Virus genome (UHGV): UHGV-0038492
Length of the DNA: 64,000 nucleotides
Source of the DNA: a virus
Strand: one strand, 5' to 3'
The notes beneath the pieces were generated by a model. That model did not search any database and was not told the DNA's origin. It saw only the letters and a list, made by a program, of their open reading frames with translations. The position numbers and the translations under genes are program-made. This document shows positions 16,521 through 53,864 of the stretch, one piece after another. Positions within the stretch are counted from its first letter, which is position 1, and each line of letters begins with the position of its first letter.

Positions 16521-16555
16521 TTTACGACTTGTTCTACAGATTAGGATTAAATATC

Positions 16556-30600: not shown

Positions 30601-30661
30601 TCAAGCGGTTTTAGACGTTACGTTAACGATAGAAGACGATGCATTAAAACCAGAGCAATAA
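27656..30661 (+). CDS. large Trp-rich protein (1001 aa), probably a virion fibre/receptor-binding component
   Basis: long ORF inside the fibre module; function not recognised. Confidence 0.65.
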   Translation: MRKHFQRHAISYALSLAYGHQSFVTRNTGTTHDAHNEHYIQNEEGVLSNNRHFIADTMAEYQPNGDATTEGQSLHVIGYCHMYIATKDERWLDAAKRAWDAYNTYFYVGQPIPTTPQRRICNWLVNGKEPVLAHYPIHPTEPTQGGYKSVPVRFTNGQCKIPHGAPFWGEYLDTFTFAHRGHPAWEAINADVQIIKEDKEGSINWEDVLTHVITNPDKPYEAKAWVDWPTLLNNATGYTPLWGGSATKAPKHDVDWIIAWTGNKIQDSEIIETGLADADKGTVQLKDTQLNGVYLINYAVKLPVEHGGYEFKRNEPWHNRPVHTPFLGSKNQYGNAADAELWFIDACYLLWRITGEEKYKQALDCTFYTAHEYTYIDAVDKFFRRSTAAETPFTDGISYDFNYPDTVSATYGRDENGDITIHVPEAAQHFMEQKAVRFRINKDSKLRVTYGGVCKNGDPVYCKAMVNINPVKADTEEVNWYGLTLPRSTVNTVKQYDVDLGQLARISTPEGEDYLIADDRACSDYGGCTWEERFEDSIYDGRAGTVIEAEFPDDGAGFIIGFWLTAEEKVKPVSIVYRADADFNLRLADSDKWRWWWMLPNTNNEWRQVTLNPDDATLSSYQPDHTDDDPKPAAPNFDKVDQVTILPDSTVDHAHFAYYCVNDVPPLFNKDDGYILTFRIGLRGGGEFDAKVGDCTIKDYRLDSLAYCPGTIPFSNNYSEGSEQLGAWHGMPYPGYQYPFMYTIHKDDRYKLWLDNQIQFMYDSQLAYQRQLGELGPGCAAYIWNRWDNYTYGEADTWTTFHWSDDHPWPGYQPRAFHAACRCWYELKLRGKEVPEALTSYIENWVNWLGGFVDRFNGHTPNEFPTAPNKPVWVEDDFNAHMCALWLAGCCWALLAGATNPNYDKVVNAAIKELGEGFTITSIPNKPINGAWSPAARESSDNGMAFGFYSGEAFRALGLYVTYKTYGANANIYRDLAITDHSQAVLDVTLTIEDDALKPEQ

Positions 30662-35302: not shown

Positions 35303-35349
35303 TTATCAGTGAGGGGTTCCCCCTCACTGACTCACAAGTACGTTATAAG

Positions 35350-36141
35350 GTGGTTATTTTGTCTGTATCAGCGACTCCCGGATGGATTGGTTCTTCAGCA
35401 AAAGCTGAAGCTGGTAATGGTTGGATGTCTGGCGCGATGCACACACTCGGTGTGCCAGTTCCAGGCTGGATGTCGCAATTGGCGGGAAAATCAAAAGAGG
35501 CTCAGTATTCGATCGGGGCTAATCACAATTACAATAAAGATACGCTTATTAACTATTTACGTTCCATAGGCTCTACTGCTGTCGTTGTGACCATTACAGG
35601 GGATTTAGTGTCTTATAGTAGCGGGGTTCCTTGTTTAGAGTTCCCTAGCAATCTTCCAAATTCGTATATTACCCTCATCATCAATCCTGGGGTTACAGTA
35701 TACGGCAGAGGAGGCAACGGCGGTTCTAACTCACCAGGCGGTGCAGGTGGAACCGCAATACAGAACGGAATAGGAAACAGACTGCGTATAACCAACCGTG
35801 GCGCTATTGCCGGAGGCGGTGGCGGCGGTGGCGGCGGTAACAGGGGTAGACTAATATTTGGTGGTGGCGGTGGTCGCCCATTCGGTGCTGGTGGGTCTTC
35901 CTCTCATATGAGTTCCGGTGCGGCTGCTGGTACTATTTCCGCTCCTGGTAGAGGATCTGTTGGTGAGGGGTCTCTTAGTGCATATACAGGCGGTTCGGGT
36001 GGTAATGTCGGTGCTGGTGGAGGAAGATGTAATACTCATGGTAACGGTACAGAATATAACGGCGGAGCAGCTGGTGCAGCTGTTACTGGTAATGCGCCAA
36101 GATGGGACGCAGTAGGTGCAATATACGGTTCACGTGTTTAA
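35350..36141 (+). CDS. gp38-like tail-fibre tip adhesin with polyglycine motifs
   Basis: N-terminal PGWIGSSAKAEAGNGWMSGA and polyglycine blocks GGGGGGGGGN, GGGGGRPFGAGG; start uncertain (GTG 35350 or TTG 35359). Confidence 0.55.
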   Translation: MVILSVSATPGWIGSSAKAEAGNGWMSGAMHTLGVPVPGWMSQLAGKSKEAQYSIGANHNYNKDTLINYLRSIGSTAVVVTITGDLVSYSSGVPCLEFPSNLPNSYITLIINPGVTVYGRGGNGGSNSPGGAGGTAIQNGIGNRLRITNRGAIAGGGGGGGGGNRGRLIFGGGGGRPFGAGGSSSHMSSGAAAGTISAPGRGSVGEGSLSAYTGGSGGNVGAGGGRCNTHGNGTEYNGGAAGAAVTGNAPRWDAVGAIYGSRV

Positions 36142-36157
36142 TTAAAAAGGAGGGTAG

Positions 36158-36670
36158 ATGGGGGTAGCGTCAGGATGGGTCGGATCTTCAGCTAAGAATG
36201 AAACTGGCCAACAATGGATGAGCGCTGCGGGTAGTAAATTAGGATTGGGTAGACCTTTTATGATGAGCCAAATGGTAGGCAAGTCCGTAGGTTGCAAAAT
36301 AGCAACAGCTTATTATAAAACGTCAAATACTGATAAAGTAGAGAACTGGGGTGCTGTCGGAGCCGATTGGCCGTTGGTAGATAAGAACAAAGGAACGCTT
36401 TCTGGTGCCTCGAACTGTGGCTTAGGACGTTTAGTGGGGATCGTACTTACGCAAGCTCACTACATTTCTGGTGTTCCACCCACTGCGGCTTTATACATCG
36501 CAGGAGGAAGGGCAAGTAATATTACAGTAACAGTTGGTGGTGTTTCGCAAGCATTTACTTACGATAGTGTTATTAACGGTTTTCACTATTATTGGCAAGG
36601 AACGCCTAGTTCGGCCTTTATAGCGGCAATGAAGAAGACGGGTGTTACACAAGATTTGAAAGTTAGCTAA
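36158..36670 (+). CDS. gp38-like N-terminal domain protein (adhesin/chaperone paralog lacking polyglycine blocks)
   Basis: N-terminus GWVGSSAKNETGQQWMSAA parallels 35350; AAGGAGGG upstream of ATG. Confidence 0.5.
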   Translation: MGVASGWVGSSAKNETGQQWMSAAGSKLGLGRPFMMSQMVGKSVGCKIATAYYKTSNTDKVENWGAVGADWPLVDKNKGTLSGASNCGLGRLVGIVLTQAHYISGVPPTAALYIAGGRASNITVTVGGVSQAFTYDSVINGFHYYWQGTPSSAFIAAMKKTGVTQDLKVS

Positions 36671-36828: not shown

Positions 36829-37341
36829 GTGGAACAATTCACGCCAGATTTGTCGTTAACTTCACTTAACATGGTTATTTCACTGGTTAACCATGACCTC
36901 CAGCTTGACTTGCAAGAGAACGAGGTTGAAGTCAGCGACGTAAAGACCAGTAACGAAATGGATCGTGACACCACTGCTGTTGTAAAGATAAAACGTCCCG
37001 GTAACAGAACGTTACAAATCTATTACAACCGTTTAACCGCAGAACGTTGGTTAAACCAGCAACCTATTCTGGTGCAAGTAACTGGAGAGGGGTTTAACAC
37101 ACACGATTTAATCGATGCGATTAACGCAGCCTGTGGTAGTAACCTGCAACCCGAAGATCTTCAGGACGATTCATTTACAGTAGGAAAAGACGCTGTAACG
37201 TTACAGGTATCACCTAACTCCCTAAGTTATAAAGGCCAATTCTCTGTTTTGGTTTTTGGTAACGGCGAAGAGGCCGCAGTAACAAAAGATGACAACCTAA
37301 TCGTTACCGCAGATAATCGCGTCTTAACCTTTGGAGGTTAA
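36829..37341 (+). CDS. tail-fibre-associated protein, paralog of 26665..27228
   Basis: GTG start after AGGAGGT; shared PDLSLTS and NAACGSNLQPEDL motifs. Confidence 0.6.
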   Translation: MEQFTPDLSLTSLNMVISLVNHDLQLDLQENEVEVSDVKTSNEMDRDTTAVVKIKRPGNRTLQIYYNRLTAERWLNQQPILVQVTGEGFNTHDLIDAINAACGSNLQPEDLQDDSFTVGKDAVTLQVSPNSLSYKGQFSVLVFGNGEEAAVTKDDNLIVTADNRVLTFGG

Positions 37342-38018: not shown

Positions 38019-38060
38019 TCAGATATATATTACCTAGAGGAGAGCGAAATTTACATTCGC
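38019..38060 (+). promoter_or_regulatory. promoter-like motif TCAGATATATATTACCTAG plus hairpin
   Basis: exact copy of the motif at 16480 and 42447. Confidence 0.45.
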
Positions 38061-38090
38061 TCTATTAGTTATAGCCGAAAGGAGGATTAG

Positions 38091-38942
38091 ATGTATCACC
38101 CGTATTATCTCCCGCACATTCTAGCAAATAGGGACCCTGATTACTACTACGAACAAACAAAAGGATCTTTTAATCGGCTCTACATTCGCGAATTTAATAC
38201 CGATGAAATGACGGACGACCAGTATCTGGAGTATCTAAAAGACCTTTACGGTTTTTCAAAATCGAATAAAGGTGACTTTGGACGTTCCGCAGTCATTAGG
38301 GTTGGTGAATATCGACATTTGGCTAAGCCTGTTACGTATCCTATTGTTACACGCGCCTATACATCGGATAGGCAATATATTGCTGAACTAAAATTTCCTT
38401 TACGGATAGACGGGCCCCAAATTAGCGCTATAGAAGTAGAGATTCAACCAATTGCTGAAGACTATATTGAAGACTACTTCAAGAAAGCTAAAGACGTACT
38501 CGAGGAGGGTTTAAGCTACTCTGAAGAAGGAACGATTTGTCTTCTCTCGTTACTCTCGAAGACTTATGTCACAGCAAATTTCCGTATCTCCGATTCCAGT
38601 AACTACAATACACTTACCCCCTCTAAAACAAAACCTGTTTATTGGGACGATCGGTTAGTCGACAGACAACGCTGGCTTACTATCTTAGATAAAGTAAAAT
38701 TCGAACCCCCTAAACACACCGAAGACGATTTTATTTTATTGCACAACTTTGAACCAATTTATATTCCGACGCATTTTGATCAAGCCTTACGTCATCGGTT
38801 GAAGTATGTGTTGGAATTACGGTACGGAAAGATAAACGGACTAACCTGTTCCGGTGAATTGGGTGAAGAAGAACGCGAGAAGATAAAAATCGTGTTTGAT
38901 AAGTTGGTTGAAGATTACATTAAGAAGGAAGGACAAATATGA
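38091..38942 (+). CDS. hypothetical protein
   Basis: GAAAGGAGG upstream of ATG. Confidence 0.6.
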   Translation: MYHPYYLPHILANRDPDYYYEQTKGSFNRLYIREFNTDEMTDDQYLEYLKDLYGFSKSNKGDFGRSAVIRVGEYRHLAKPVTYPIVTRAYTSDRQYIAELKFPLRIDGPQISAIEVEIQPIAEDYIEDYFKKAKDVLEEGLSYSEEGTICLLSLLSKTYVTANFRISDSSNYNTLTPSKTKPVYWDDRLVDRQRWLTILDKVKFEPPKHTEDDFILLHNFEPIYIPTHFDQALRHRLKYVLELRYGKINGLTCSGELGEEEREKIKIVFDKLVEDYIKKEGQI

Positions 38943-39382
38943 AACCAAATACTACTAATGGCATTATGCTACTTTGTGATTCTGAAACGTTAGCAAACCG
39001 TATTCGTGGTTTGATGGAAGTACGTTGGAAGCAAAAGGTTCGCGTGGACTATGCTGCACCGTTTGTTCACGTTACTTGGTTACCAGAAGCTAACGATTTC
39101 AAAGAAAATATCACCACGAAAAGAATTAAAAATTGGTTAATGGCAATCATTAACAAACAGATTACCGTTATCAATTTCCAGTTGTTCGGTAGTAAAGAAG
39201 AACATGAAACCTTAAAACGCTGTTTAAGGGGATTGGATCTTGCCTTTTCTGTTCGTGGAAACTGTTACACAGCGTTCTTCATCGGTTCTCTTGAGTTATT
39301 TCAGGGAACATTAAACATTCAACTAAAAGAAGATTACGGGATTGTAAATAAGATTGATTTCGAATTCCCAGCAATGATTTAA
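38939..39382 (+). CDS. hypothetical protein
   Basis: ATGA overlap. Confidence 0.55.
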   Translation: MKPNTTNGIMLLCDSETLANRIRGLMEVRWKQKVRVDYAAPFVHVTWLPEANDFKENITTKRIKNWLMAIINKQITVINFQLFGSKEEHETLKRCLRGLDLAFSVRGNCYTAFFIGSLELFQGTLNIQLKEDYGIVNKIDFEFPAMI

Positions 39383-39393
39383 GGAGTAGTAAC

Positions 39394-40236
39394 ATGTTTC
39401 AGTTCGAACTAACCGAAGAAGAAAAGGTTATCAACAAGTTTAAAATTTCCCCTATCCCTACTGAAGAACAAATTAAGGAAATCGCTGAGCTACAAAACAC
39501 GTACACGTTTTACTATAAAGTTAAATCAGAAGCGTTTAACATTTTCTGGGTAGAAGGCGAGGTCGATTTCCCTAACAAGCTCATTAGTGCGGTTATGGAT
39601 ATTTTAGTACGGCCTGTTGAGACGCCTAAAGATCCAGAAATTCCGGATCAAATGACTTGTAGGCTAAAAGACAAGCCAACTGCGAAAGACGTCGCTTACT
39701 TCACAGACGAGATTCTACTTACCCCAAAACAAGCAGGCAAAGTTGAACCAATAATAGACCTTTTTTTCAGTGACGAATTCACTTATGTGGCTGAAGACAA
39801 CAAGCTAAAAGTGAGCTATGAGAGTGCTTGTTGTCACTCTCTTTTAAAAGATCTATTGGAAGACATAGAGGATGAAAGAATTCTGCTATTTACCGTTGAA
39901 AATATTACCGAACTCGATGCTGATGTATTTATCCACGACGTGGATGATGAAATTGGACGTTTTGTAATGGCAATTTGTCAACAAAAATATCTTGAAGGTA
40001 ACTTGCATCTCTTGGTCAAAAACGAACCACGGGTTCTTAAAGTTTTGAAGTCCCATGTACGGAAAATTAAGAGAAATAATGAATTATATAAACGTGTTTT
40101 CGAGAAATACGAAAAGGAAGTCAGACAACGTTTTTCACGCCATTGTTCCGGCTGGTTCGAAAATCACGGTGTGGAACTCGCCCAGCTGTTTGATCAGTTT
40201 TATAATGAGATGAGGAAGATTCAAGATCTTAAATAA
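39394..40236 (+). CDS. hypothetical protein
   Basis: AAGGAG upstream of ATG. Confidence 0.6.
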   Translation: MFQFELTEEEKVINKFKISPIPTEEQIKEIAELQNTYTFYYKVKSEAFNIFWVEGEVDFPNKLISAVMDILVRPVETPKDPEIPDQMTCRLKDKPTAKDVAYFTDEILLTPKQAGKVEPIIDLFFSDEFTYVAEDNKLKVSYESACCHSLLKDLLEDIEDERILLFTVENITELDADVFIHDVDDEIGRFVMAICQQKYLEGNLHLLVKNEPRVLKVLKSHVRKIKRNNELYKRVFEKYEKEVRQRFSRHCSGWFENHGVELAQLFDQFYNEMRKIQDLK

Positions 40237-40322
40237 AGGGTTGAAACCCACTTTCGATAATTATTAAACAGGGGAATTTACCCCCCCCCTCCACATAGAG
40301 TAAATCCCTAAAGGAGCATTAA

Positions 40323-40838
40323 ATGTCTGTAACAATCAACATGAATCTTTATACCAAACGTGAACGTCAAATCTTGGCTAATCAGCCAGGCGTTACTACT
40401 ATCGACGGTAAACCTATCGACCCATTAAAAGTCGTTGTCGCACACAACTGTTTCGAGAAAGACTGGGACATCATGTATTTCCGTTGCCGTTCTGTCGCAA
40501 ACGCACTTACCCAGCTCTCGAATTATCATCCTGGTCCAGTATTAAAAGACTGGGTTTGGTTAGTCCCTAAAACACCTTCAGCGATTGAGTATCCGTCGGG
40601 TATGGTCTATATTCGTCCTGTCGCTTATCCAGAACGTTTAAAAGAATATCTGGAGGTTATCTGGGACCGACCTCGTAAAGAGCTGGTGACGATTATCCGT
40701 TTACTTCAAATGTGCGATATCCCCAATGTTTCGAATCTGAAACTTACGTCTCGCGATGTTAACCAGGCTTACTGGGAACTGGAGTGGACTGAAATGAAAT
40801 TCGAAAACACTAACCGCATTTTCTTGCACCGGGGGTAA
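40323..40838 (+). CDS. hypothetical protein
   Basis: AAAGGAG upstream of ATG. Confidence 0.6.
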   Translation: MSVTINMNLYTKRERQILANQPGVTTIDGKPIDPLKVVVAHNCFEKDWDIMYFRCRSVANALTQLSNYHPGPVLKDWVWLVPKTPSAIEYPSGMVYIRPVAYPERLKEYLEVIWDRPRKELVTIIRLLQMCDIPNVSNLKLTSRDVNQAYWELEWTEMKFENTNRIFLHRG

Positions 40839-40840
40839 AA

Positions 40841-41122
40841 ATGTTAGATTGGTTGTTGGGCTTAATTAACTCACGTCAACAGGAGCTTTATAAAGAAAAC
40901 ACGCGGTTACGGCAGCAGCTTAGTAACAATCGTCAAACCAAACGACAATTAATTCGGATGGTAAAACAACAGGCGCGCTGTATACGCGATATCGATTATC
41001 AGTATCACCGTCTGAATACCTTAGACCCAACAACAAAAGCTTTAGGTAGTACGATTGGACACGCACGTAAAGTCAGTCACGATGCGTTAGTTCGAATCGA
41101 TACAGTCGAAGAGAAACTGTGA
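40841..41122 (+). CDS. small hypothetical protein
   Basis: 93-codon ORF. Confidence 0.5.
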   Translation: MLDWLLGLINSRQQELYKENTRLRQQLSNNRQTKRQLIRMVKQQARCIRDIDYQYHRLNTLDPTTKALGSTIGHARKVSHDALVRIDTVEEKL

Positions 41123-41165
41123 TTAGCTCTCCCTCGGGATTACCGAGGGAGATAAGGCGATTTAC

Positions 41166-41555
41166 ATGATGCGTTTATCTTACATTAAAAGACGTTTGTT
41201 ACTAAAAGCTCAACTGTATGCTAACGGGAAAGTTAAAAACTGGCTATGCGGTGAAAGGGTACAACGTATCGTTAGTGAGGGCGACTGGTATACAGAAATC
41301 GTGGTTTCACCAAACGGTGAGCTTATAAACGTTACTATTCGTGACGTTTTAGTTAAGATTGGCAGGGCAGGTGGCCTGCTGTTTGAATCGGAAACTACAA
41401 AAGTCGTTGCTAAACAATTGAAAGAAGGTCGGGTTATATTCAATGTCACCGCCCAGAAATATTACGACCATTTATTCGAATGTCAACGAGCTTTGGACAG
41501 AATGACCCGTGAGATGCGAAGAATGCACATCACGGAGATCACTATAGGGGTTTAA
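41166..41555 (+). CDS. hypothetical protein
   Basis: 129-codon ORF. Confidence 0.5.
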   Translation: MMRLSYIKRRLLLKAQLYANGKVKNWLCGERVQRIVSEGDWYTEIVVSPNGELINVTIRDVLVKIGRAGGLLFESETTKVVAKQLKEGRVIFNVTAQKYYDHLFECQRALDRMTREMRRMHITEITIGV

Positions 41556-41866
41556 TGATGGAAAGTAAAATCACGAACACAACGACACCTGAGAACATTG
41601 TCAACTACATTCTCAGTGGCGGGTTATTAGAAGACAACAAAGAAACGTGCGATAAACTCGTTTCTCAACTACTGCCGATTCGTTCAGAATACTGCGAAGT
41701 CGTTATCCTGGGTTCTGAGTATTGCGTACGTTCCTACTGTCGTCGTTTCGAAGCCTTACGTGTTCCACGTACGTTAGGTGGCGTGATACTCTTAGTCTCT
41801 AACTTTCACAATGCACACGTTCGTGTTGCAACCTGGATTGCTAACGGTGGTGACAATGGTTTTTAA
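41555..41866 (+). CDS. hypothetical protein
   Basis: 103-codon ORF with overlapping start. Confidence 0.5.
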   Translation: MMESKITNTTTPENIVNYILSGGLLEDNKETCDKLVSQLLPIRSEYCEVVILGSEYCVRSYCRRFEALRVPRTLGGVILLVSNFHNAHVRVATWIANGGDNGF

Positions 41867-42164
41867 ATTGTTAGGTTTCGGAAAATGCAAAGAGTGCGCA
41901 AAGCACGAAGAATATATCAAGTTATTAGAAGAAACGGTTGAAACGCAAAAAGAACTTATCTCTGAATACCGCGCGAAAACCGGTTCAGTGGAATATCTGA
42001 CCATCCTTGTTTGTGCTATTGCTGAATTGGGTTGTGAGGGAAAATTACCTAAAGAAGAGATATTAAAATTATTAAAAGAAAAAACAGAGTTCTACCGTAA
42101 AGAAATTGATGATTATAAACGTGAAGTTATAAGAGCGAATTGGGAGGTTATTAATGAAGCGTGA
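41856..42164 (+). CDS. hypothetical protein with CKECAK motif
   Basis: internal ATG at 41856 of the track ORF; overlaps the upstream stop by 11 nt. Confidence 0.45.
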   Translation: MVFKLLGFGKCKECAKHEEYIKLLEETVETQKELISEYRAKTGSVEYLTILVCAIAELGCEGKLPKEEILKLLKEKTEFYRKEIDDYKREVIRANWEVINEA

Positions 42165-42435
42165 AACAGTTGTATTTCGTAGCAACGGTGATGTGGTTTT
42201 GTATCGTGGTAAGAAACGTATTCGTACGTTAGAATACCGAGAAGCAAAACGTTTTGTTGAAGAGTGTGCATGGTTAATGCATTACGAAGGGAACTATCGA
42301 GCTATCTTAGAAGCACCGCGTTTAGAACGTGCGGTTGCACAGATGGCAATAGGTAATCCTAAGAACTGTTACCTGGCACGTAAGCCAAAATACCTACAGC
42401 GGCTTTCGTTAGGCAGCTTTATTGCTGGATTTTAA
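42154..42435 (+). CDS. hypothetical protein
   Basis: 93-codon ORF. Confidence 0.5.
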   Translation: MKRETVVFRSNGDVVLYRGKKRIRTLEYREAKRFVEECAWLMHYEGNYRAILEAPRLERAVAQMAIGNPKNCYLARKPKYLQRLSLGSFIAGF

Positions 42436-42446
42436 TAAAAATAATT

Positions 42447-42496
42447 TCAGATATATATTACCTAGGTGAGAGTTCAGCTACTCTCACTTAACTAAA
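42447..42496 (+). promoter_or_regulatory. promoter-like motif TCAGATATATATTACCTAG plus hairpin plus TTAACTAAA
   Basis: exact motif copy; hairpin gtgagagt-tcagct-actctcac. Confidence 0.45.
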
Positions 42497-42516
42497 CCAT
42501 TTTAGGAGCATATACC

Positions 42517-43011
42517 ATGAACTTCACTAGACTTGATTACACTAACGAATTAGTTGACAAAGAAAAATACAAATTCACCGTTGATTTGGGTTACGGATTA
42601 CTGGACGTAGAAAAAGATGTTCTGCACAAAGAATTCCGTGAGCAGTTCGGTGCTTTGTTCTGCGCAGGTTTCCGCAGAAACACTATTGATATCGGCTATA
42701 GCGCAACAGCGTATACCGACGAAGAAATGTTTAAGCTGGTAACACAGATTGTCGGAACGCGTGGAGCCAAACGACTCAACTATTCCAATGAGCTTGTTTC
42801 GAAAGAACATTACAAGTTCACCGTTAGACTACCTGTTCACCTCACAGAAGAAGATAAGAACATCCTCTATAAAGCTCTTCAAACCGAATTCGGTAAAACG
42901 CTCAAAGTAGGGTTCCGTAGTCGTAGTATCGACATCGGGATTAGTGTAGACGTATGCAGTGACGATGACCTTTACGAACTAGTTTCGGAAGTTATCGGAA
43001 AACATCTTTAA
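42517..43011 (+). CDS. hypothetical protein made of two tandem ~80-aa repeats
   Basis: halves RLDYTNELVDKEKYKFTV... and RLNYSNELVSKEHYKFTV... align. Confidence 0.6.
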   Translation: MNFTRLDYTNELVDKEKYKFTVDLGYGLLDVEKDVLHKEFREQFGALFCAGFRRNTIDIGYSATAYTDEEMFKLVTQIVGTRGAKRLNYSNELVSKEHYKFTVRLPVHLTEEDKNILYKALQTEFGKTLKVGFRSRSIDIGISVDVCSDDDLYELVSEVIGKHL

Positions 43012-43055
43012 CGTAAATTAACACTTCGACTTGTAAATCTAAAAGGAAAAATAAA

Positions 43056-43847
43056 ATGGCTACTTTAACTATTGCTAATACTCTTACTCCTCGTAAAATG
43101 AAACGTCTTACGACTTTTATCTCTCGCTGCACACCTAGCGTCAAATTGGAAACGACCTCTGACAAAATCACGTTTTGGACTTATAGTGACGTAGAACTTG
43201 AAACTGTGAAAGGGTTTGTTAATGGGCTAGTTGAAAATACCGCATCATCGCTCGTTATTAGCTTCACTAGCGAAAATAGCGAGATGAACGAAGCAACAAT
43301 TTCGGATGCAATCTATTACGCGACTGGCAATAATTTTGATACCGCCGACAGACTTAATCTTTCTAATAACCTTTGTAAAATCGACGACAAGACTTACATC
43401 CTATATTTTAATAGTCCGTTCCCACAAATCGGAGGTTTTAAACATTATCTTTCAATGAAACCTATCTTGGGTATAGAAGTTTTCTCTACGGATCTTGAAG
43501 ACAATGTACAGCTAAACCGTATTCGTTATCGCGGTAAACGTCCAACCGAAACAGATTCTGAATACGGTGCTTGTGCTGAATATATTCTGGTTCATAAAGA
43601 TCGCTTCGCTTACTACAACCAAGACGATATTGAACGTCTTGTAGAAGCCGTCAATTTATACACTCGTGATTTTGCATTCCGATTGGTTTATAACACTTAT
43701 CCGAATGGTGTAACGGCTTTCTATATCCCTCCCTACCTTTTCGACAAGGTTTATTGTATTCTGTCTAAAGAACTGGAAAAAATTAAACCGGTTTTCGTGG
43801 GCGAAGACGCTATGGCTTATATCAGGAGTGGTGCTAATGTCCTCTAA
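43056..43847 (+). CDS. hypothetical protein
   Basis: 263-codon ORF. Confidence 0.6.
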   Translation: MATLTIANTLTPRKMKRLTTFISRCTPSVKLETTSDKITFWTYSDVELETVKGFVNGLVENTASSLVISFTSENSEMNEATISDAIYYATGNNFDTADRLNLSNNLCKIDDKTYILYFNSPFPQIGGFKHYLSMKPILGIEVFSTDLEDNVQLNRIRYRGKRPTETDSEYGACAEYILVHKDRFAYYNQDDIERLVEAVNLYTRDFAFRLVYNTYPNGVTAFYIPPYLFDKVYCILSKELEKIKPVFVGEDAMAYIRSGANVL

Positions 43848-44268
43848 ACTTAAAGATGAATTGCGTGATTACATTCGTAAATACCCAGCCAGTATTCCGG
43901 TACTGGCTTCACTCTCTTTATCGGGTATGGACCTTAATACCTTAACGGTAGAAAAATTCCACGAAGTGGTAAAATCGTCGTATCAAATTGTTACCGATAT
44001 GTCAGTGCGGAAACGTGCTGACTACCCAGACGGTGATTTCGGTACAGAGATGTTCACAGACTACGCAGTTGCGTATCTGATGGGACGTCACTTTATCGAT
44101 AAGCTCAATACAGCTGTAGAAGGAGAAACCGTTACGGAAATTGTCAATGCTTGGCAACAACGTATTGTGAGTGACGCTTACTGTCGTCAAGCCTTAAAGA
44201 AAATGTCGGCGGTAGCATTAACCAACGACCAACGTGCTTTAGAGTTCCTTAAGCACAATTACGAATAA
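43837..44268 (+). CDS. hypothetical protein, paralog of 45532..45963
   Basis: LKDELRDYIRKYPASIPVLA vs LKDDIRNYIRNNPIALGVLA; ATG at 43837 after AGGAG. Confidence 0.55.
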   Translation: MSSKLKDELRDYIRKYPASIPVLASLSLSGMDLNTLTVEKFHEVVKSSYQIVTDMSVRKRADYPDGDFGTEMFTDYAVAYLMGRHFIDKLNTAVEGETVTEIVNAWQQRIVSDAYCRQALKKMSAVALTNDQRALEFLKHNYE

Positions 44269-44289
44269 TTTACCAAAAGGAAAAGTACC

Positions 44290-45462
44290 ATGTTTAATAT
44301 TGAGATTACACCGCTCGTTAAAACTGAAATCCGTCCGGTTCCTGAAGCACAGTTACTCGATCAACTTTATCGTATATTCCTGGATAAAGGTGTGCATTTC
44401 CGTGTAGAACAGGTCAATGACGAAAGCATCGTGTTCTACTGGACTCACAGCAACGATTATCTTTGCGATACTATCGCGAAAGAAATTGGTGAGTTGCTCA
44501 ACCCAGCAGCCACGAACGCCAAGGTAGAAACGACCGAGACTGAACAACCGAAAGTCGAAGAACAGCAGTGGCCTGAAACCAGCGCCGACAACCCGCTCGT
44601 CTATCGGTATGGTGCCGAAACGAATGAGAAAATTAAAGAAACATTAGAGGCTCTCTATCCTGATTATTTAACCATCAGTCAACAATGCGACGTGTTAGTT
44701 ATCTGGATGAATGATTTCGAACCCAAGCTCATTAAAGCTATTCGCATCACCGTTGCACTGATCGTCAAAGACGCCGTTCGCCTTATTTCGTTTGAAGGTA
44801 TCGGTCGACGTGACGCGGATGATTTCATGCGTGATGTCGTTCACGAACACAAGGAGAAAATTCTTCGGTCTAATTATGTTGGTGACACTCTAATTGTGCT
44901 TGTTGATAATGATCCCGTTATTATTAATCAGCTGAACATCCGTATGCGTAAGTTAACAAAGAAAATTTTTCTTAAAGGGGAGCAATCGCTTGAAGAGTCC
45001 AAAGTGTCTAAAGTCTTTACTTACACTGGTCCAGATGCCAAAGCGATTAACGATACTTTGGCAGCTTTCTATTCTAGCAAAGTAGAGACTAAACTCGAGG
45101 GCGAAGAACTCACCATTAAATGGAAATGGTGGGACATTGCTCTTGAAGAAGAAATTCATAGTCTTATTAAAGAGATTGTTGACAATCGTCTACGTCTTCT
45201 AACAATCACTACTATCGGTGGAGAAGATGCCGATGCGTTTATAAGCGGGGTTCTTCGCGCGTATCCTGAGAAAGTCCGTCAATGGACTTACAATGACGAT
45301 ACACTTATCATCCTGCTCAACTATGAACCTGGCCTTATTGGGAAATTGAAGGATCGTCTACGCGATCTGTGGTACAAACGATTTCTTAAGGATGGGTCGA
45401 AAGAGCTCATTAAACGATTGTTTTCTGATTGCAACTGTCCTATATGTCAGAAGCATCGCTAA
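44290..45462 (+). CDS. hypothetical protein with internal duplication and C-terminal CNCPIC motif
   Basis: repeats FEGIGRRDADDFMRDVV... and TIGGEDADAFISGVL... Confidence 0.6.
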   Translation: MFNIEITPLVKTEIRPVPEAQLLDQLYRIFLDKGVHFRVEQVNDESIVFYWTHSNDYLCDTIAKEIGELLNPAATNAKVETTETEQPKVEEQQWPETSADNPLVYRYGAETNEKIKETLEALYPDYLTISQQCDVLVIWMNDFEPKLIKAIRITVALIVKDAVRLISFEGIGRRDADDFMRDVVHEHKEKILRSNYVGDTLIVLVDNDPVIINQLNIRMRKLTKKIFLKGEQSLEESKVSKVFTYTGPDAKAINDTLAAFYSSKVETKLEGEELTIKWKWWDIALEEEIHSLIKEIVDNRLRLLTITTIGGEDADAFISGVLRAYPEKVRQWTYNDDTLIILLNYEPGLIGKLKDRLRDLWYKRFLKDGSKELIKRLFSDCNCPICQKHR

Positions 45463-45531
45463 TTAACTAAATTCGTACAAGGGGTGGTTTACCACCCCTC
45501 TATTATTGTATTTACCTAAAGGAGTATTAAA

Positions 45532-45963
45532 ATGTTTTTCGTATTAAAAGATGATATTCGTAACTACATTCGTAACAATCCGATTGCTCTAGGCGTTTTA
45601 GCAGGTTTCTGTCGTCCAAATACTGACTTCGATTTAGTTAAGTTAGAAGAATATCAAGAAATTGTGAATACTACCTACCTGCACATCTGTAGCTGGGGTA
45701 AACGTCCTCGTGAAGAGTACCCTGTGGGTGAGTTAGGTGACACCATGCACCGTGACCAGAATCTGATGCACGAATTCGTTGAATACACACTGGAAAATCT
45801 TAACTATCCGCTCCTGGTCGACACTGTACCAGAAATGGTTGACGAATGGTTAAAACGTGTTTATAGCGATCCTACCGCCAACAAGTTACTGAGCCAGATG
45901 TCACAAACTTCTCGTGACATCGACACTCGTACGCTGATGTACTTAGCACATAATGTTCGCTAA
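45532..45963 (+). CDS. hypothetical protein, paralog of 43837..44268
   Basis: AAAGGAG upstream of ATG. Confidence 0.6.
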   Translation: MFFVLKDDIRNYIRNNPIALGVLAGFCRPNTDFDLVKLEEYQEIVNTTYLHICSWGKRPREEYPVGELGDTMHRDQNLMHEFVEYTLENLNYPLLVDTVPEMVDEWLKRVYSDPTANKLLSQMSQTSRDIDTRTLMYLAHNVR

Positions 45964-45969
45964 CCTCTT

Positions 45970-46030
45970 TCCGCTATAGGCTTCGGTCTATAGCGGAATT
46001 AATTTTCTTCCCCTTTTCTTTTTTTGTTAT
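45970..46030 (+). terminator. intrinsic terminator
   Basis: hairpin ccgctatag-gcttcggtc-tatagcgg followed by T-rich tract. Confidence 0.55.
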
Positions 46031-46130
46031 TTTGACACCACTTTACTTACACCCTACCCGACTATTCCTATGCTGGCTGAGGGATGTAAAACGACCTCTT
46101 AAACCTTTTTACTTACTGTGAGTTAACGCG

Positions 46131-46979
46131 ATGTCTCTTACGTCAAAACAGAAACTGCTAAAACTCATCAACACTGAAAACAATATTATTCCACCGTTGA
46201 CTTTCAGTGATGTTGAAATCGGGGAACCTACCGGTACTGGGGTTGATACCCAGGTGGTTCTGACCTCTAAACTTAAAGGCGATGAGTCTACTACTTTAAC
46301 AGTGACTTACCACCGTCGTAACTTACCTGACTACCTAACCGGTGAGTTGGTATTCGGTAACGACAGTGTGGTAACCGCATCAGATTTGCTTAATGCGATT
46401 AACGCAAAATACAACCTAAATATTTTACCCTCGGATATCGTTGACGCAAAAGTTGAAGGCGAAACCCATCAGCTTACCGCTAACGAGAAATCTTACGAGT
46501 GGTGCGGTGTAGTAACGCTTACGCTGCGCGATCCTATTGACCTGACTGAACTGTTACCGGTTACTCAATTAGAGAATCTGGTAGAGTATCCGTCCACGAA
46601 GAAAGGTAACGCGGCGGTTTATTCTCACCCGATTGATTTCACCGCAGAAAAAGATTACCTTGACCCGATTACTATCAACGACGCTGTAGACTTGGTAGAA
46701 TTAGCTACTAAACTGGATAGCGTCGTTGACGAGAAATGGGTAAGCGTACCTAAGAACGCGGCTAACAACCTGTACGGAGCGAAGATTATTTACGATGGTC
46801 CAACCGCAGGTTACGAAGGCGCAAATACGAAGTTCACTCGTGTGTTGGTGCTAACACTCAGCCCGCTGTGTTCTAACCTGACCGGTAACCTGTTAATTCA
46901 CTTTAACGGGACCGATCGTCCGAAGTCGAAGATTGAATTAGCACAGACTAATCCGGTCTTACCGGGATTCTTAGATTAA
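46131..46979 (+). CDS. member of the six-gene structural-protein paralog family
   Basis: DLLNAINAKYNLNILPSDIVD aligns with the NLQPEDL motif of 26665 and 36829. Confidence 0.55.
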   Translation: MSLTSKQKLLKLINTENNIIPPLTFSDVEIGEPTGTGVDTQVVLTSKLKGDESTTLTVTYHRRNLPDYLTGELVFGNDSVVTASDLLNAINAKYNLNILPSDIVDAKVEGETHQLTANEKSYEWCGVVTLTLRDPIDLTELLPVTQLENLVEYPSTKKGNAAVYSHPIDFTAEKDYLDPITINDAVDLVELATKLDSVVDEKWVSVPKNAANNLYGAKIIYDGPTAGYEGANTKFTRVLVLTLSPLCSNLTGNLLIHFNGTDRPKSKIELAQTNPVLPGFLD

Positions 46980-46992
46980 GAGGATTACAGTA

Positions 46993-47472
46993 ATGGCCAA
47001 TCAAGAAACTATCTTCGACCTTATTAAAAAGGCTAACCCGGACGCTGAGTTCGACACCACCAAAGTCACACTGGGTGAACCGGTTGTGACCACCGGTACT
47101 TACAATACCGAAATTACGGTTGCGTCGATTAAGAATCTCGGTTATGTTAATAAGCAAACGTTCCAGTATAACCGCATTGACGCAGGTTTGTATTTCCTGA
47201 ACGTATTACCGAAATTGTTGGTAGAATCTGCAACGACTACCGCTGACTTACTGCCCGTCATTAACGAGCAGTACAGCCTAACCCTTACAGAAGACGACGT
47301 GTGGGTAGAACAGGTTGGTGAGTTACCGTTAGACGGTAGCGCAATCGAACACGGTATTTTCTTCCGTCCTGAGTGTCTGACCTGGGTTGGTGGTTTTACA
47401 GTGCGTGTTGCGCGTAAACCGGCTGACGCCACACCGCCAAAGACGGCGTCTCGCGCTAAAAAGAAAAAATAA
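46993..47472 (+). CDS. member of the six-gene paralog family; Lys-rich C-terminus
   Basis: ADLLPVINEQYSLTLTEDDV motif; N-terminus parallels 46131. Confidence 0.55.
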   Translation: MANQETIFDLIKKANPDAEFDTTKVTLGEPVVTTGTYNTEITVASIKNLGYVNKQTFQYNRIDAGLYFLNVLPKLLVESATTTADLLPVINEQYSLTLTEDDVWVEQVGELPLDGSAIEHGIFFRPECLTWVGGFTVRVARKPADATPPKTASRAKKKK

Positions 47473-50000: not shown

Positions 50001-50139
50001 AATCTCATCCTTATTAAAATTAAGAAAAATTAATTTTTTCAGGTTAGCGCTTACTGCCAACCGTCATATCTATATTTTAGGAAATGTCTAAAATAACATT
50101 CTTATGCAATCCACCCCTGCCACTTACGAGGTAAAAACG

Positions 50140-50676
50140 ATGGCTAAAGCCTTCAAACAGCAGCTCATCGAAGCTGTAATTGCTAAAAACTCAGAAACCG
50201 CTTCTAATCTGACGGTTGCTGATGTTGATTTTGGCGCTGTTGCTGAGTTCAGCGGAGACGCTGGCCGCAACACTAAAATTACCCTGACCGCCAAGGCAGA
50301 AAGCCAGAACTTCAAAGGCGAGAAAGAATTCCACTACATTCGTCTGGCTTCTCAAGACCTGATCGGTGCTAAAGCTTACGAACAAGCCGGTAGCCTCGAT
50401 CTGGAAAACTCTGCCATTGTAACCAAACTGAACGAAGAAATGGTTACTAAAGGTTATGTCGATGACGAGTTTGCAGAGAGCGAACTGTCCATTGAGAAAT
50501 CCGAAGGCGACAGCGGTGCTAAAGTTTACACTGTCAAAGTAAGCGAAGGTCACATCAAATTCCTGGCTGGTACCATTGCCACCTTCACTTATTCCAACCC
50601 AGCTCCTGAGAAGGTAGCACTGAGCGGTCTGGAAGGTGAACTTGATGGCTTCACTGCGCCGGGTGTCGGTGGCTAA
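50140..50676 (+). CDS. member of the six-gene paralog family (paralog of 50748..51278)
   Basis: GRNTKITLTAKAESQNFKGEKEFHYIRL and C-terminal GELDGFTA shared with the next gene; ATG at 50140 after GAGGT. Confidence 0.55.
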   Translation: MAKAFKQQLIEAVIAKNSETASNLTVADVDFGAVAEFSGDAGRNTKITLTAKAESQNFKGEKEFHYIRLASQDLIGAKAYEQAGSLDLENSAIVTKLNEEMVTKGYVDDEFAESELSIEKSEGDSGAKVYTVKVSEGHIKFLAGTIATFTYSNPAPEKVALSGLEGELDGFTAPGVGG

Positions 50677-50747: not shown

Positions 50748-51278
50748 ATGGCCGCTACTAACCAGATGATGTTGGTCGCGCTTTATAATGCTGCTAACAC
50801 TGAGCTACCGCATCAGATTACAGATAAAGAAGTGTCCTTTGGTTTGCCTGCTGCGCTGGAAGGCGAAGGTAAGAATACCAAAGTTACCATGACCGCACTA
50901 CCGGGTTCTGAGAATTTCAAAGGCGAAATCGAACTGCATTACGATCGTCTGGAGCCAGGTGTTGTAGGACGGATTGAACTAACTGACGATCTGTCTCGCT
51001 GGGTTCAAGAAAATGAACTCCGTGCTTGGTTACAGTATTACATCAACAAAGTAAAACCTGACGACGCTATCGCACCAGGCGACGTTGTGTACAACACCGA
51101 AGACCAGAAAGACGAACATGAAAACGTCACTCTGCGTACCGTGACGTGCACCGTTACTGAAAAGAACCTCCGTTATAAACCAGGTGTAATGGCAACTTTC
51201 GTAATTACACCGAAGGTTGTCGATAATCGTATTGACCTGGCCACCACCAACGGTGAGTTGGACGGCTTTACTGCTTAA
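50748..51278 (+). CDS. member of the six-gene paralog family
   Basis: GKNTKVTMTALPGSENFKGEIELHYDRL; C-terminal NGELDGFTA. Confidence 0.55.
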   Translation: MAATNQMMLVALYNAANTELPHQITDKEVSFGLPAALEGEGKNTKVTMTALPGSENFKGEIELHYDRLEPGVVGRIELTDDLSRWVQENELRAWLQYYINKVKPDDAIAPGDVVYNTEDQKDEHENVTLRTVTCTVTEKNLRYKPGVMATFVITPKVVDNRIDLATTNGELDGFTA

Positions 51279-51359: not shown

Positions 51360-52031
51360 TTACAGCCCTTGCTCTAATGCAAACGCTTTAATTGAATCGT
51401 AATCACGGGCTTCGGCCCAAGCTCTGACTTCTTTTTTCTGTTCCGTCATTGCCTGATGCAGTTGCTGGTCGCGTTGCACAATAGCACCCAGCAGTGTTTT
51501 GCACTGCTCTAACGTAAACGGTTCGATACGGGTGTTGTTGGCCGTTAACCAATACGCTGGCGCGGTTTCTGACTGAATATAACGACTCAGTGCTACCTGT
51601 GACTTCTCATCTGCCTGGAAAGTGAAATCACCCACTTGAATCTCGGCATACCGCGCATCCTGATAACGGAATTCCAATGCGCTTAGGATTTTCTGAACAT
51701 CGGTAAAGATATACCGCACAGTGGAGCGTAAACCCGTACGAATCTCTTCCAGGTCAATTCCCAACGTGTCGTTAACAAAGTCTTTCGCTTTCTGTAACGT
51801 AAATCGTGCTTCGATTTCAGACATGTCGTAGTTACGCATTTGTTCCAATGCTTCACGATCGGACATCCCATCAATCAATTTATAGTGCAGTAACGCACAA
51901 AAACCCGTACGACCATGATCTTCGCTACCGATTTTTTCCATATAGTTACCATGGCGGTCAATCGGTAAATCGTGCTCAAAATAACGACGACGGATTTCTT
52001 CTTTCGTTAAGCCTTCACCAGTAGCAGACAT
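51360..52031 (-). CDS. hypothetical protein, last gene of the radical-SAM cluster operon
   Basis: 223-codon ORF co-oriented with the cluster. Confidence 0.55.
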   Translation of the reverse strand: MSATGEGLTKEEIRRRYFEHDLPIDRHGNYMEKIGSEDHGRTGFCALLHYKLIDGMSDREALEQMRNYDMSEIEARFTLQKAKDFVNDTLGIDLEEIRTGLRSTVRYIFTDVQKILSALEFRYQDARYAEIQVGDFTFQADEKSQVALSRYIQSETAPAYWLTANNTRIEPFTLEQCKTLLGAIVQRDQQLHQAMTEQKKEVRAWAEARDYDSIKAFALEQGL

Positions 52032-52579
52032 TCATCGTCTCCTTTAATCAATCCTAATTCGATTAACAGTTCAAAATCGATATGACGGAATCTTGTATCA
52101 AAATCCGATTCCCAATCGATGCGGATACCCTGGCACTCTTCTGATGTTAGCTCGGGAAAAATTACGGTATTAAATTTCTCACGCTCATCGTAAAACCCAT
52201 CAATCGGTGAGTTCGGGTTACGCGTTGCGAAAATAGTAATACCAGGGAAAGATAATGCTAACACAGTGATAGATTCTGCGCTGGGCTCACTTAAAGAGCG
52301 GCGTAGAAACGCAATTTTGTGGCGTGGGAAGTCCAATACGCGTTCTTCAAACCCTGGATTACGTTTTTCGATTTCCGCTACCGACAGGTCAGTAAGTTCG
52401 GTGCAATACATTGGGATGATTACAGTCACGCCGTGGCGAATCAGTAAACGTTTTACGTCATCGGTAAAATCTTCGCCGTTAATCATCACGTAACAACCGA
52501 ACAGCTTACTGTTTTCCAGAAACTTATCCAGAAGTCGAATTCTACGCTTCGTAATATTGTTGATCAGAATTGGTTTCAT
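52007..52579 (-). CDS. hypothetical protein in the radical-SAM cluster
   Basis: 190-codon ORF; AAGAGAAG upstream of ATG; start overlaps the upstream gene. Confidence 0.5.
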   Translation of the reverse strand: MKPILINNITKRRIRLLDKFLENSKLFGCYVMINGEDFTDDVKRLLIRHGVTVIIPMYCTELTDLSVAEIEKRNPGFEERVLDFPRHKIAFLRRSLSEPSAESITVLALSFPGITIFATRNPNSPIDGFYDEREKFNTVIFPELTSEECQGIRIDWESDFDTRFRHIDFELLIELGLIKGDDECLLLVKA

Positions 52580-53864
52580 CTTTGGCTTCTCTTAATAATT
52601 TTTCCTTTTGGGCGCGTTCACGAACACAGCGTGGGCAATAACACATACTCGTGTCGTGGAACGCTTTTGCTGACGTCGTACCCATCTTCTGTTTCCAGTA
52701 TTCCGCCACCATCAGTTTCGCTGTCGTCCACCCGCACTGACGTCGCTCAGCGTGATACGCTTTACGGTCTTCCAGTGTCCCTTCACCGTTTTCGTAAGAA
52801 GCCGCAGCGCAGCTACCACAAGCGTGTTTCATCGGACAACCTAAGCACGTCTCTGGATAGTTGGTATATTGTGTTTGAATCTCTTCTAACAATTTACCGT
52901 TGTCCAGGCTGACGAATTCCCGACCTACCAACTCAAATACCGCAGAACGTGATGTTACGGTTGACATAAAGCGATTGCAACCGAAGATCTTACGGTCAAA
53001 ACCTAAACACGTCATGTGTGTTAATGTCCCACAGAACGGACGTAAACGTTCTGGGTTCAACCGCACCGTGTCATTATAAAGTAATTGATCACGCCAGTTC
53101 GGTTCCCAAATCGTATCGAAATCCAACCCTTCTGGGATGATGTGCGATAAGATATTACGTGGGTTGGTGTGTAATCCTTTCTCGACCCAATAATCAATCA
53201 CATCCATCATCTGCAATGCAATTGAAGTAGCCATCCCACGTGGCATAATGTCTTCGAAGGTTACGTTGCCGGAGATAGTTCCGCCACCAGTAATATCAAT
53301 TAATGACTTCATTCCGGCAGCATAGTACGGTAACGTTTCTAACGTAAAGGTCGCCTTTACGCCAAGCTCTGCAATGCCAACCTCTTTTAAGTAGTTATAG
53401 CCTCGTACTGCGGCTTCGTAAGAACCCTGGCGCGTCGTTGTAAAGATACGATAACGGTCATGGGACTCAGGTAAGCCGTCAATTGAAACCCCAACCGAAA
53501 GTTTGTCTTTCCAACGCTCTACGATCTCACGGTTCAACGGGCGATCTAACAACGTCCCGTTTGTGGAAATACTAAACATAAACGGCCGATTATGTTCTTT
53601 ACACAACTGCTCGGCGGTTTCAAATGCAGCCAGCAGCAACTTAGGCTGCATGAACGGTTCACCACCGATAATGTCAATAATAACTTCAACATTCGGTTCG
53701 TTTTTATCGCGTTCAAAACAGGCGTGCAAGAAATCAACAATATCTGCCGCTTTGTTGTTACGCGGGTACTTACGTTCGTAACAATATTCGCAGTCCAGGT
53801 TACACGAAAGGTTCGTTACAATCTGATACGTTAGCTGCTTAGGGAATTCATTTACCTGACTCAT
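52542..53864 (-). CDS. radical SAM enzyme with SPASM-type C-terminal Cys-rich domain (anSME/peptide-maturase-like)
   Basis: CNLDCEYC (CxxxCxxC) at residues 21-28, GGEP SAM motif, C-terminal cysteines in CGTLTHMTC...GC and CLGCPMKHACGSC; GAGGGG upstream of ATG. Confidence 0.8.
   Translation of the reverse strand: MSQVNEFPKQLTYQIVTNLSCNLDCEYCYERKYPRNNKAADIVDFLHACFERDKNEPNVEVIIDIIGGEPFMQPKLLLAAFETAEQLCKEHNRPFMFSISTNGTLLDRPLNREIVERWKDKLSVGVSIDGLPESHDRYRIFTTTRQGSYEAAVRGYNYLKEVGIAELGVKATFTLETLPYYAAGMKSLIDITGGGTISGNVTFEDIMPRGMATSIALQMMDVIDYWVEKGLHTNPRNILSHIIPEGLDFDTIWEPNWRDQLLYNDTVRLNPERLRPFCGTLTHMTCLGFDRKIFGCNRFMSTVTSRSAVFELVGREFVSLDNGKLLEEIQTQYTNYPETCLGCPMKHACGSCAAASYENGEGTLEDRKAYHAERRQCGWTTAKLMVAEYWKQKMGTTSAKAFHDTSMCYCPRCVRERAQKEKLLREAKDETNSDQQYYEA

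Follow-up and report, generated by a model that had tools for sequence, protein, structure and literature searches.

The 64,000-nucleotide stretch of the viral genome UHGV-0038492 analysed here (the window) carries on its plus strand, within positions 42517-45963, five tightly packed open reading frames (ORFs), which we designate A to E. A sixth, U, is a one-unit paralog of D that lies 4 kb upstream, outside the span considered by the sequence-only reading that preceded this analysis (Table 1). That reading had noticed two tandem repeats of about 80 residues in A, two copies of a short motif in D and the relatedness of C and E, and had taken them together for a locally duplicating, fast-evolving accessory module. 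The repeats and paralogs are real; what they very probably represent is a set of old, fixed duplications in an accessory block specific to one phage group, with two localised recombination hot spots on a conserved backbone.

Table 1. Genes, repeats and predicted transcription signals of the A-E block and its upstream paralog (window coordinates; aa, amino acid residues; nt, nucleotides; z, folding energy relative to shuffled sequence)
Feature	Residues (aa)	Position	Strand	Description
17-mer TCAGATATATATTACCT, early-promoter-like		38019-38035	+	72 nt before the ORF at 38091; heads the gene run containing U
Hairpin after the 38019 promoter copy		38041-38063	+	-10.6 kcal/mol, z=-3.4
ORF U		39394-40236	+	280 aa; one-unit D paralog
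17-mer TCAGATATATATTACCT, early-promoter-like		42447-42463	+	70 nt before the A start codon; TATATTAC core 42454-42461
Hairpin GTGAGAGT-TCAGCT-ACTCTCAC		42466-42487	+	8-bp stem directly after the promoter element; -15.5 kcal/mol, z=-5.0
ORF A		42517-43011	+	164 aa; two tandem ~80-aa repeats
A repeat 1	1-82	42517-42762	+	predicted beta-beta-alpha-beta-beta-alpha domain
A repeat 2	83-164	42763-43008	+	predicted beta-beta-alpha-beta-beta-alpha domain
ORF B		43056-43847	+	263 aa; cassette-swapping slot
ORF C		43837-44268	+	143 aa; paralog of E
ORF D		44290-45462	+	390 aa; five predicted beta-alpha-beta-beta-alpha modules
D modules 1-5	9-70, 103-159, 163-229, 240-297, 301-377		+	AlphaFold2 model
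D acidic linker	71-100		+	disordered in the model
D unit 1 (modules 2+3)	101-232	44590-44985	+	tandem duplication
D unit 2 (modules 4+5)	239-370	45004-45399	+	tandem duplication
D C-terminal motif C-x-C-P-x-C-Q-K-x-R	381-390	45430-45459	+	conserved Cys
Hairpin AGGGGTGG-TTTA-CCACCCCT		45480-45499	+	GC-rich, 18 nt past the D stop; -15.3 kcal/mol, z=-2.5
ORF E		45532-45963	+	143 aa; paralog of C
Intrinsic-terminator-like hairpin with T-rich tail		45969-45998	+	strong; -20.9 kcal/mol, z=-6.1

The repeats and paralogs were assessed by their Smith-Waterman scores against 2000 shuffles, with BLASTP and hhalign alongside. Alignment significance, which the sequence-only reading had named beforehand as the test that could refute it, is high throughout, with z-scores of 25-38 and no shuffle reaching the observed scores. 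In A, residues 5-80 and 86-161 are identical at 33 of 76 positions (43%; score 180 against 25.7 +/- 5.0 for shuffled sequences, z=30.8, 0/2000), and hhalign relates repeat 1 to repeat 2 with a probability of 99.2%. The AlphaFold model (predicted local distance difference test, pLDDT, 77) contains two beta-beta-alpha-beta-beta-alpha domains. The repeats of A are thus in tandem, as had been proposed, and each is an alpha+beta domain of about 80 residues on the model. Its length is nearly invariant: 164 residues in 20 of 21 near-full-length database clusters and 162 in the remaining one, at 85-97% identity.

C and E, likewise paralogs as first described, are identical at 43 of 137 positions (31%; BLASTP E=1.9e-26, z=37.8), and each matches nearly the full length of phrog_8484, a family with no functional annotation (C, 2.4e-15 over residues 3-129; E, 2.1e-17 over residues 2-129). 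The window holds two copies of this family, whereas the characterised relatives, Salmonella phage SPN3US and Erwinia phage Asesino, hold one: an HMM (hidden Markov model) of the family finds a single ORF in either genome, and it is E that is matched by tblastn to these single homologs, SPN3US_0135 and Asesino gp152 (23-26% identity, E-values 6e-8 to 2e-9). SPN3US_0134, a protein of 146 residues encoded next to SPN3US_0135, was considered as a second paralog and rejected, having no detectable relation to C or E. C and E derive from a duplication, specific to the phage group of the window, of a gene present only once in SPN3US and in Asesino.

In D, residues 104-229 and 242-367 are identical at 40 of 126 positions (32%; score 154 against 28.8 +/- 4.9, z=25.3, 0/2000), an HMM of the 130-residue unit matches D twice (1.6e-62 and 2.2e-65), and hhalign pairs module 2 with module 4 (95.9%) and module 3 with module 5 (99.4%). 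On the AlphaFold2 model (mean pLDDT 77.4), D is a string of five modules of about 60 residues, within which a two-module unit of 130 residues is duplicated in tandem. The motif that had first drawn attention to D, given as (F/T)-x-G-x-x-DAD-x-F, does belong to this repeat, but its first position was one register off: the F taken there is F168, two residues before the position equivalent to T308, and the aligned copies, G-I-G-R-R-D-A-D-D-F (residues 170-179) and T-I-G-G-E-D-A-D-A-F (residues 308-317), give (G/T)-I-G-x-x-D-A-D-x-F. Among 69 family members, copy 1 mostly reads E-A-D. In the same 69 sequences C381, C383 and C386 are invariant. The C-x-C-P-x-C-Q-K-x-R tail to which they belong occurs in all members of the D family, the one-unit variants included, and is absent from U; it could serve metal-binding or dimerisation.

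The paralog U has the layout of a D shortened by one unit, with an N-terminal module corresponding to module 1 followed by a single 130-residue unit that contains ELDADVF at residue 173. The relation is supported by BLASTP (E=6e-8), by the D-unit HMM (3e-12 over residues 111-229 of U) and by hhalign, which aligns module 1 of D to residues 13-73 (99.5%), module 4 to residues 101-161 (99.0%) and module 5 to residues 161-233 (99.7%). We also considered that A, B, D and U, as well as the ORFs at 38091-38942 and 38939-39382, might all belong to a single hidden family of modules, and rejected it: profile-profile comparison supports only D-U, the two repeats of A, and C-E, all other pairs having a probability of at most 10%, and A and D have in common only the general alpha/beta architecture of their models. 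Beyond the phage group, no homolog of D was recovered by tblastn from 50,697 phage records, and a profile search of 1.84 billion representatives returned four clusters of the D family together with one repeat protein of 2,289 residues (E=2.6e-6), which we judged spurious because its sequence is that of a repetitive surface-type protein.

The window fits the description of the proposed genus 'Bapsvirus' of the Chimalliviridae, a relative of SPN3US and Asesino, and probably belongs to it. 'Bapsvirus' comprises 247 genomes of ~220-249 kb recovered from bacterial assemblies, which are syntenic with Seoulvirus yet only distantly similar to it, and for which a carrier-like state has been discussed (PMC12768965). 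The host labels (Salmonella, E. coli, Shigella) and the synteny of the window lineage agree with that description, which fits the view that the lineage and its carrier-like state are already published (PMC12768965). Homologs of D and A lie on contigs of 222-227 kb in metagenomes and in assemblies of Salmonella, E. coli and Shigella; two circular 'plasmids', NZ_CP173450.1 (E. coli 98232, 221,873 bp) and NZ_CP134650.1 (Enterobacter ludwigii, 222,441 bp), carry them too. The collection of 50,697 phage records has no member of the lineage, but many assemblies of Salmonella, E. coli, Shigella and Enterobacter contain it, either as a 'plasmid' or as a large contig. At the protein level, the tail protein at 27656-30661 has 77% identity to Asesino gp141 and 72% to its SPN3US counterpart, and gene order in the neighbourhood follows that of SPN3US_0124-0138 and of Asesino gp141-155. 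At the DNA level, phage records have no match to the region save an intergenic element of ~50 nt; by megablast, 42434-42488 is common to the window and 44 SPN3US/Erwinia jumbo phages, with no other shared stretch.

Comparison within this group separates a conserved backbone from two positions of a very different kind, which are the most variable of the neighbourhood. The first is the B slot. The B of the window has 24% identity to the 254-residue occupant of the relatives L003, L004 and L005, against 96-98% for the neighbouring genes, and DNA homology with relatives ends at 43056 and restarts at 43857, that is, at the borders of gene B. Occupants among relatives have 263 residues, 254 residues, 258 residues (47% identical to the 254-residue type) or, in an unrelated cassette, 157 residues; this last is found in a relative whose D and E are 94% and 99% identical to those of the window. 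A word-based search of 5.8 billion proteins added one further cluster to the B allele of the window, at 96% identity. B is a slot for at least three gene-precise cassettes, with exchange of the whole gene at its exact borders. B and two alternative cassettes have no match in Pfam, PHROGs, NCBIfam, PADLOC or PDB sequence searches. Further gene-precise replacements are seen at the U slot (window 39402-40291) and at 41123-41551: L004 has a U at 72% identity and L003, in its place, an unrelated ORF of 175 residues, and the ORF at 41166-41555 is 95% identical in L003 versus 43% in L004.

The second position is D, whose variation is confined to parts of the gene. At 90% identity D falls into more than 250 clusters, versus 23 for A. 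Modules 1, 3 and 5 have a mean pairwise identity of 0.83-0.90, as against 0.56 for module 2 (residues 101-160), which falls into four discrete allele groups, and 0.64 for the C-terminal helix (residues 351-380), which falls into two. All eight combinations of module 2 and C-terminal-helix alleles are seen (8/8); both segments exist as discrete alleles in free recombination. On the conserved A/C/E backbone the B types, too, are reassorted with the alleles of D. D also varies in its number of units: P0122 consists of module 1 and unit 2, P0124 of module 1, unit 1 and the C-terminal tail, and the element of E. coli 98232 encodes a one-unit D of 253 residues, the same length as these variants. As either unit can survive, we infer that the one-unit forms are losses by recombination between the repeats.

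The remaining genes behave quite differently. The order A/B/C/D/E is identical in every relative that spans the block, and one complete relative genome (NZ_CP134650.1) has two D/U, two C/E, one A and one B genes. A, C and E have 94-98% identity to their counterparts in two relatives and pairwise Nei-Gojobori ratios of nonsynonymous to synonymous substitution (dN/dS) of 0.03-0.21, on par with the flanking genes; the identity of C is 97-98% for one group of relatives and 78% for a second (dN/dS 0.18-0.21), and E has a dN/dS of 0.08-0.09. The synonymous divergence (dS) is about 1.0 in D module 2, versus 0.12-0.31 in D module 1 and 0.11-0.40 in A, C and E, and the dN/dS of module 2 is 0.4-0.5. The saturated dS of the variable segment points to old alleles rather than rapid change in situ, and the variability of B and D looks like the exchange of old, deeply diverged alleles by recombination. 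Positive selection found no support, dN/dS being at most 0.78 in every segment (the maximum, on 50 codons) and above 1 in none. A diversity-generating retroelement was rejected too: there is no template repeat in 42400-46100, the only stretch searched (a reverse transcriptase gene was not searched for), and D varies as four allele groups, 30-60% identical and with indels, not by point hypermutation.

How old the duplications are bears on the literal form of the sequence-only reading, in which genes and domains would still be duplicating locally by birth and death and the module would be evolving fast as a whole. Three independent duplications within 3.5 kb, with U in addition upstream, invite that idea, as do the one or two units of D among relatives and the much greater divergence of D and B than of their neighbours. 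We nevertheless hold it to be unlikely. The copies are only 31-43% identical as proteins and essentially without DNA similarity: in 42400-46100 no long direct repeats were found, and the only residual similarity left by any of the duplications is a stretch of 29 nt at 83% identity (43852-43880 versus 45547-45575), which codes for the conserved N-terminal part of C and of E. In every relative A, C and E keep their length and order, at the low dN/dS given above, the complete relative genome has no extra copies, no three-unit D or third C/E copy occurs among the relatives examined, and the one-unit forms, one keeping unit 1 and another unit 2, look like losses. In SPN3US and Asesino there is a single C/E gene, and A, B, D and U are all missing, which places the duplications in or before the phage group, where they are now fixed. 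Of the earlier description, then, the accessory status holds up, with no Pfam or functional PHROG match and with A, B, D and U lacking a counterpart in SPN3US and Asesino. 'Fast-evolving' is right for B and D and wrong for the whole module, given A, C and E, and 'locally duplicating' is not borne out. Copy number, which it had proposed to compare among related phages, varies for the units of D (two or one) and is constant for A, C and E.

The block is bracketed by predicted transcription signals. The 17-mer TCAGATATATATTACCT occurs as three exact copies in the window (at 16481, 38019 and 42447; 0.10 expected) and agrees with the predicted promoter consensus of phiKZ and 201phi2-1; Table 2 of PMC7058600 gives TATATTAC for phiKZ and ...TTTRARR_BTATATTACDWHDGTG for 201phi2-1. 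It has the sequence features of a phiKZ-type early (virion RNA polymerase) promoter, namely an AT-rich motif with a TATATTAC core that is intergenic and co-oriented upstream of gene runs. According to a review, all jumbo phages with RNA polymerases of their own have a conserved AT-rich motif ahead of their early operons, and wherever transcripts have been mapped the motif turned out to be the early promoter (PMC7598289). In NZ_CP134650.1 all eight copies of the 17-mer are on the plus coding strand, six of them 71-75 nt ahead of an annotated start codon; in SPN3US the element precedes a run of tiny hypothetical genes. The hairpin at 42466-42487, which 0/200 shuffles match in folding, is a predicted 5' stem-loop of the transcript, and upstream of A both promoter element and hairpin stem are kept in 12/12 relatives while the loop changes. 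Hairpins follow all three copies of the 17-mer (16481-16522, 38019-38063, 42447-42487) with differing sequences and z of -3.2 to -5.0 against shuffles, which suggests that early transcripts carry a structured 5' end. A search for sigma-70 promoters gave no signal, with 27 found versus 27.2 expected in shuffled sequence.

At the other end, the hairpin after E is conserved, a C-G pair being G-C by compensatory change in L014, the most distant relative, and it separates the block from the genes for DUF7941 virion proteins. The terminator-like hairpin past D is conserved in 14 relatives; in L014 its stem is different and fully compensated. Promoter motif and hairpins together suggest that A-D, and perhaps E, are read as an early operon, preceded by another (38019-42435) that contains U. 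The spacer between D and E (45500-45531, CTATTATTGTATTTACCTAAAGGAG) is near-invariant in 14 relatives, and its last letters, ATTTACCT, are similar to those with which the early-promoter element ends at its 3' side (ATATTACCT); for E the spacer might serve as a weak internal promoter or as a processing site.

Searches for function gave little. A, B, C, D, E and U have no sequence match in Pfam (none at E<=0.1), NCBIfam or PDB. PADLOC returned nothing for A, B, C, E, U and the alternative B cassettes, and for D only a marginal match to PDC-M13C (E=0.0097, 14 bits). None of A-E and U belongs to DUF7941 (PF25613), for which the neighbours at 46131-46979 and 46993-47472 score 176 and 99 bits, the gathering score being 27. 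In the PDB, Foldseek pairs the D model best with GspD-type secretins (8co1, E=3.4e-6), designed ferredoxin folds and KH, ACT and BMC-T proteins; the fold search also returned uncharacterised giant-virus repeat proteins. Overall the fold matches are generic small alpha/beta domains, including pterin dehydratase, and the nearest known folds include pterin-4a-carbinolamine dehydratase/DCoH-like and HMA-type alpha+beta sandwiches.

What explanation accounts best for the block as a whole? On balance, and with some reserve, we favour the view that it is the second of two adjacent, apparently early blocks of non-structural accessory genes in a jumbo phage. Early, non-virion expression is itself probable by analogy, because of the promoter motif, the terminators and the place of the head paralog family in SPN3US. 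As far as their main text goes, two SPN3US proteome papers have that family start at gp138 and do not name gp125-137 as virion proteins (PMC5694885, PMC5105663). A tentative further step, which we regard as possible though it may well fail, is that A-E are non-enzymatic binding or scaffold proteins whose exchangeable parts recognise a variable partner in the host or in a rival phage; what suggests it is that catalytic signatures are lacking, that the proteins are built from modular repeats, and the way in which their diversity is distributed. In such a scheme A-E would be made early, during takeover of the cell, with the conserved modules as scaffold, and D module 2, the D C-terminal helix and the B cassette would be surfaces that recognise a host defence target, a takeover target or a competing phage, their alleles being maintained and exchanged among co-circulating phages. 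Considerably more speculative, and in our estimate improbable, is the narrower proposal that D/U constitute a new modular 'specificity' family of nucleus-forming jumbo phages, with a scaffold and exchangeable recognition cassettes in module 2 and the C-terminal helix. The D cassettes together with the swappable B would then decide which host defence or rival phage a strain neutralises, balancing selection would keep the alleles, and recombination would shuffle them among phages persisting in the same isolates.

Several points weigh against the picture of an early, exchangeable recognition module. 'Early' comes from the motif and from analogy with phiKZ-like phages, and the hairpin after D has a weak T-run, which bears on whether E is co-transcribed. 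The models were built on shallow alignments (for D, 69 sequences at 72-99% identity to the query; for A, 22 sequences at 85-97%). Since dN/dS never exceeds 1, relaxed constraint with recombination could give the same pattern. The position of the block, between the tail-fibre and adhesin genes and the head-protein paralogs, also fits a structural or assembly role.

The last point leads to a functional rival, in which A-E would be parts of the virion, or chaperones of its assembly, linked with the structural genes on either side; D and B, for instance, might be chaperones or accessory factors that co-evolve with the tail fibre and the gp38-like adhesins or with the DUF7941 head paralogs. The block does lie between the genes at 30743-36670 and the DUF7941 genes at 46131-47472, the tail-fibre and adhesin genes are variable too (52-95% identity), and the D profile has a weak, non-significant match to a tail fibre assembly protein (5yvq_B, E=0.48). 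Such a role is hard to square with an early-type promoter before A and a strong terminator between E and the structural genes; A-E match neither DUF7941 nor any structural PHROG, the D alleles do not follow the B types, and gp125-137 go unnamed among the SPN3US virion proteins in the main texts cited above. We rate it as having a small chance of being right.

Far less probable is that A and D belong to a peptide-modification system with two radical SAM/SPASM enzymes encoded 7-9 kb downstream, A being a tandem HxsD-like accessory protein and the C-x-C-P-x-C end of D the modified substrate. The idea draws on a weak match of A repeat 2 to HxsD (TIGR03976, E=0.025, 14.9 bits), on the three invariant cysteines in the last 10 residues of D, and on matches of the minus-strand genes 52542-53864 and 53848-54771 to peptide maturases, including HxsB (1.7e-21), HxsC (4.5e-10) and many others. 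HxsB and HxsC are not the best of these, however, and all matches of the radical SAM proteins are far under their cut-offs. The enzymes are on the opposite strand with lysis and structural genes in between, and the D paralog U lacks the Cys motif. The HxsD match scores 13.9 bits for whole A and 14.9 for repeat 2 against a cut-off of 50, and covers only 30 residues; with a sub-threshold score and nothing for repeat 1, HxsD identity was rejected for A. The pair of radical SAM genes adjoins a DUF4376 protein and an ORF of 190 residues, and this minus-strand set (51360-54771) has 51-85% identity among relatives versus 94-99% in its surroundings. Finally, that the similarities arose by chance or that the ORFs are not real genes has nothing in its favour but the lack of database annotation and deserves practically no credence in the face of z-scores of 25-38 that none of 2000 shuffles matched, conservation at full length across hundreds of assemblies, dN/dS far under 1 and confident predicted folds.

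The families A, B and D/U are new to databases; the type of region, a variable accessory cluster with paralogs in a jumbo phage, is familiar. Its value is that it pinpoints the variable positions of a widespread, uncultured group of giant enterobacterial phages: the B slot and two cassettes within D, on a 90-98% conserved background behind a predicted early promoter. If these positions face host defences or competing phages, they would be first candidates for determinants of host range, persistence and phage-phage exclusion in the Chimalliviridae; otherwise the region is an ordinary case of old paralogy among phage genes of unknown function.

With the N-domains of the secretin GspD and with KH and ACT domains, the D model has in common the beta-alpha-beta-beta-alpha topology of its five modules. 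Unlike those proteins, D has no sequence-level relation to them (Pfam, NCBIfam, PDB), whole-chain TM-scores (template modelling scores) are 0.1-0.2, and a signal peptide, a secretin domain, a GXXG loop and a ligand-binding signature are all absent; the resemblance is, on the model, at the level of a very common fold.

The closest genomic counterparts are SPN3US gp125-gp137 and Asesino gp142-gp153 (Seoulvirus and Erskinevirus), which occupy the same position between the tail protein and the head paralog family. Shared with them are the genes at 40323-40838 (SPN3US_0127) and 41555-41866 (SPN3US_0131), E as the counterpart of SPN3US_0135 and Asesino gp152, the first DUF7941 gene coming next, and the promoter element. 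The difference lies in what is added: from the tail protein to E the window is longer by ~10 kb, part of which encodes a T4-like long tail fibre and gp38-type adhesins, and A, B, D and U are not detectable in SPN3US and Asesino. The fibre (1519 residues) and two gp38-like adhesin ORFs are encoded on the plus strand at 30743-36670, where SPN3US and Asesino have small hypothetical genes; homologs in relatives, at 52-95% identity, carry Phage_fiber_2, Gp34_trimer, Peptidase_S74, Gp38_N and GP38 domains. DUF7941, the SPN3US head 'paralog family B', is represented in the window by five genes (36829-37341, 46131-46979, 46993-47472, 50104-50676 and 50748-51278), and counterparts of the first and the last two in relatives carry this Pfam domain as well. 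Of the 20 members in SPN3US, 17 form one array (gp138-154), so the window family is much smaller or more dispersed.

Phage genomes are mosaic, and in the accessory hot spots of lytic phages cassettes are replaced with gene precision between conserved flanks. As no occupant of the slots described here matches a known defence or anti-defence family, a parallel in function with those hot spots is something that we only infer. What the two have in common is their form: as in the hot spots, homology breaks at exact gene borders (B slot, U slot, ORF 41166-41555), and one and the same slot holds unrelated or barely related occupants.

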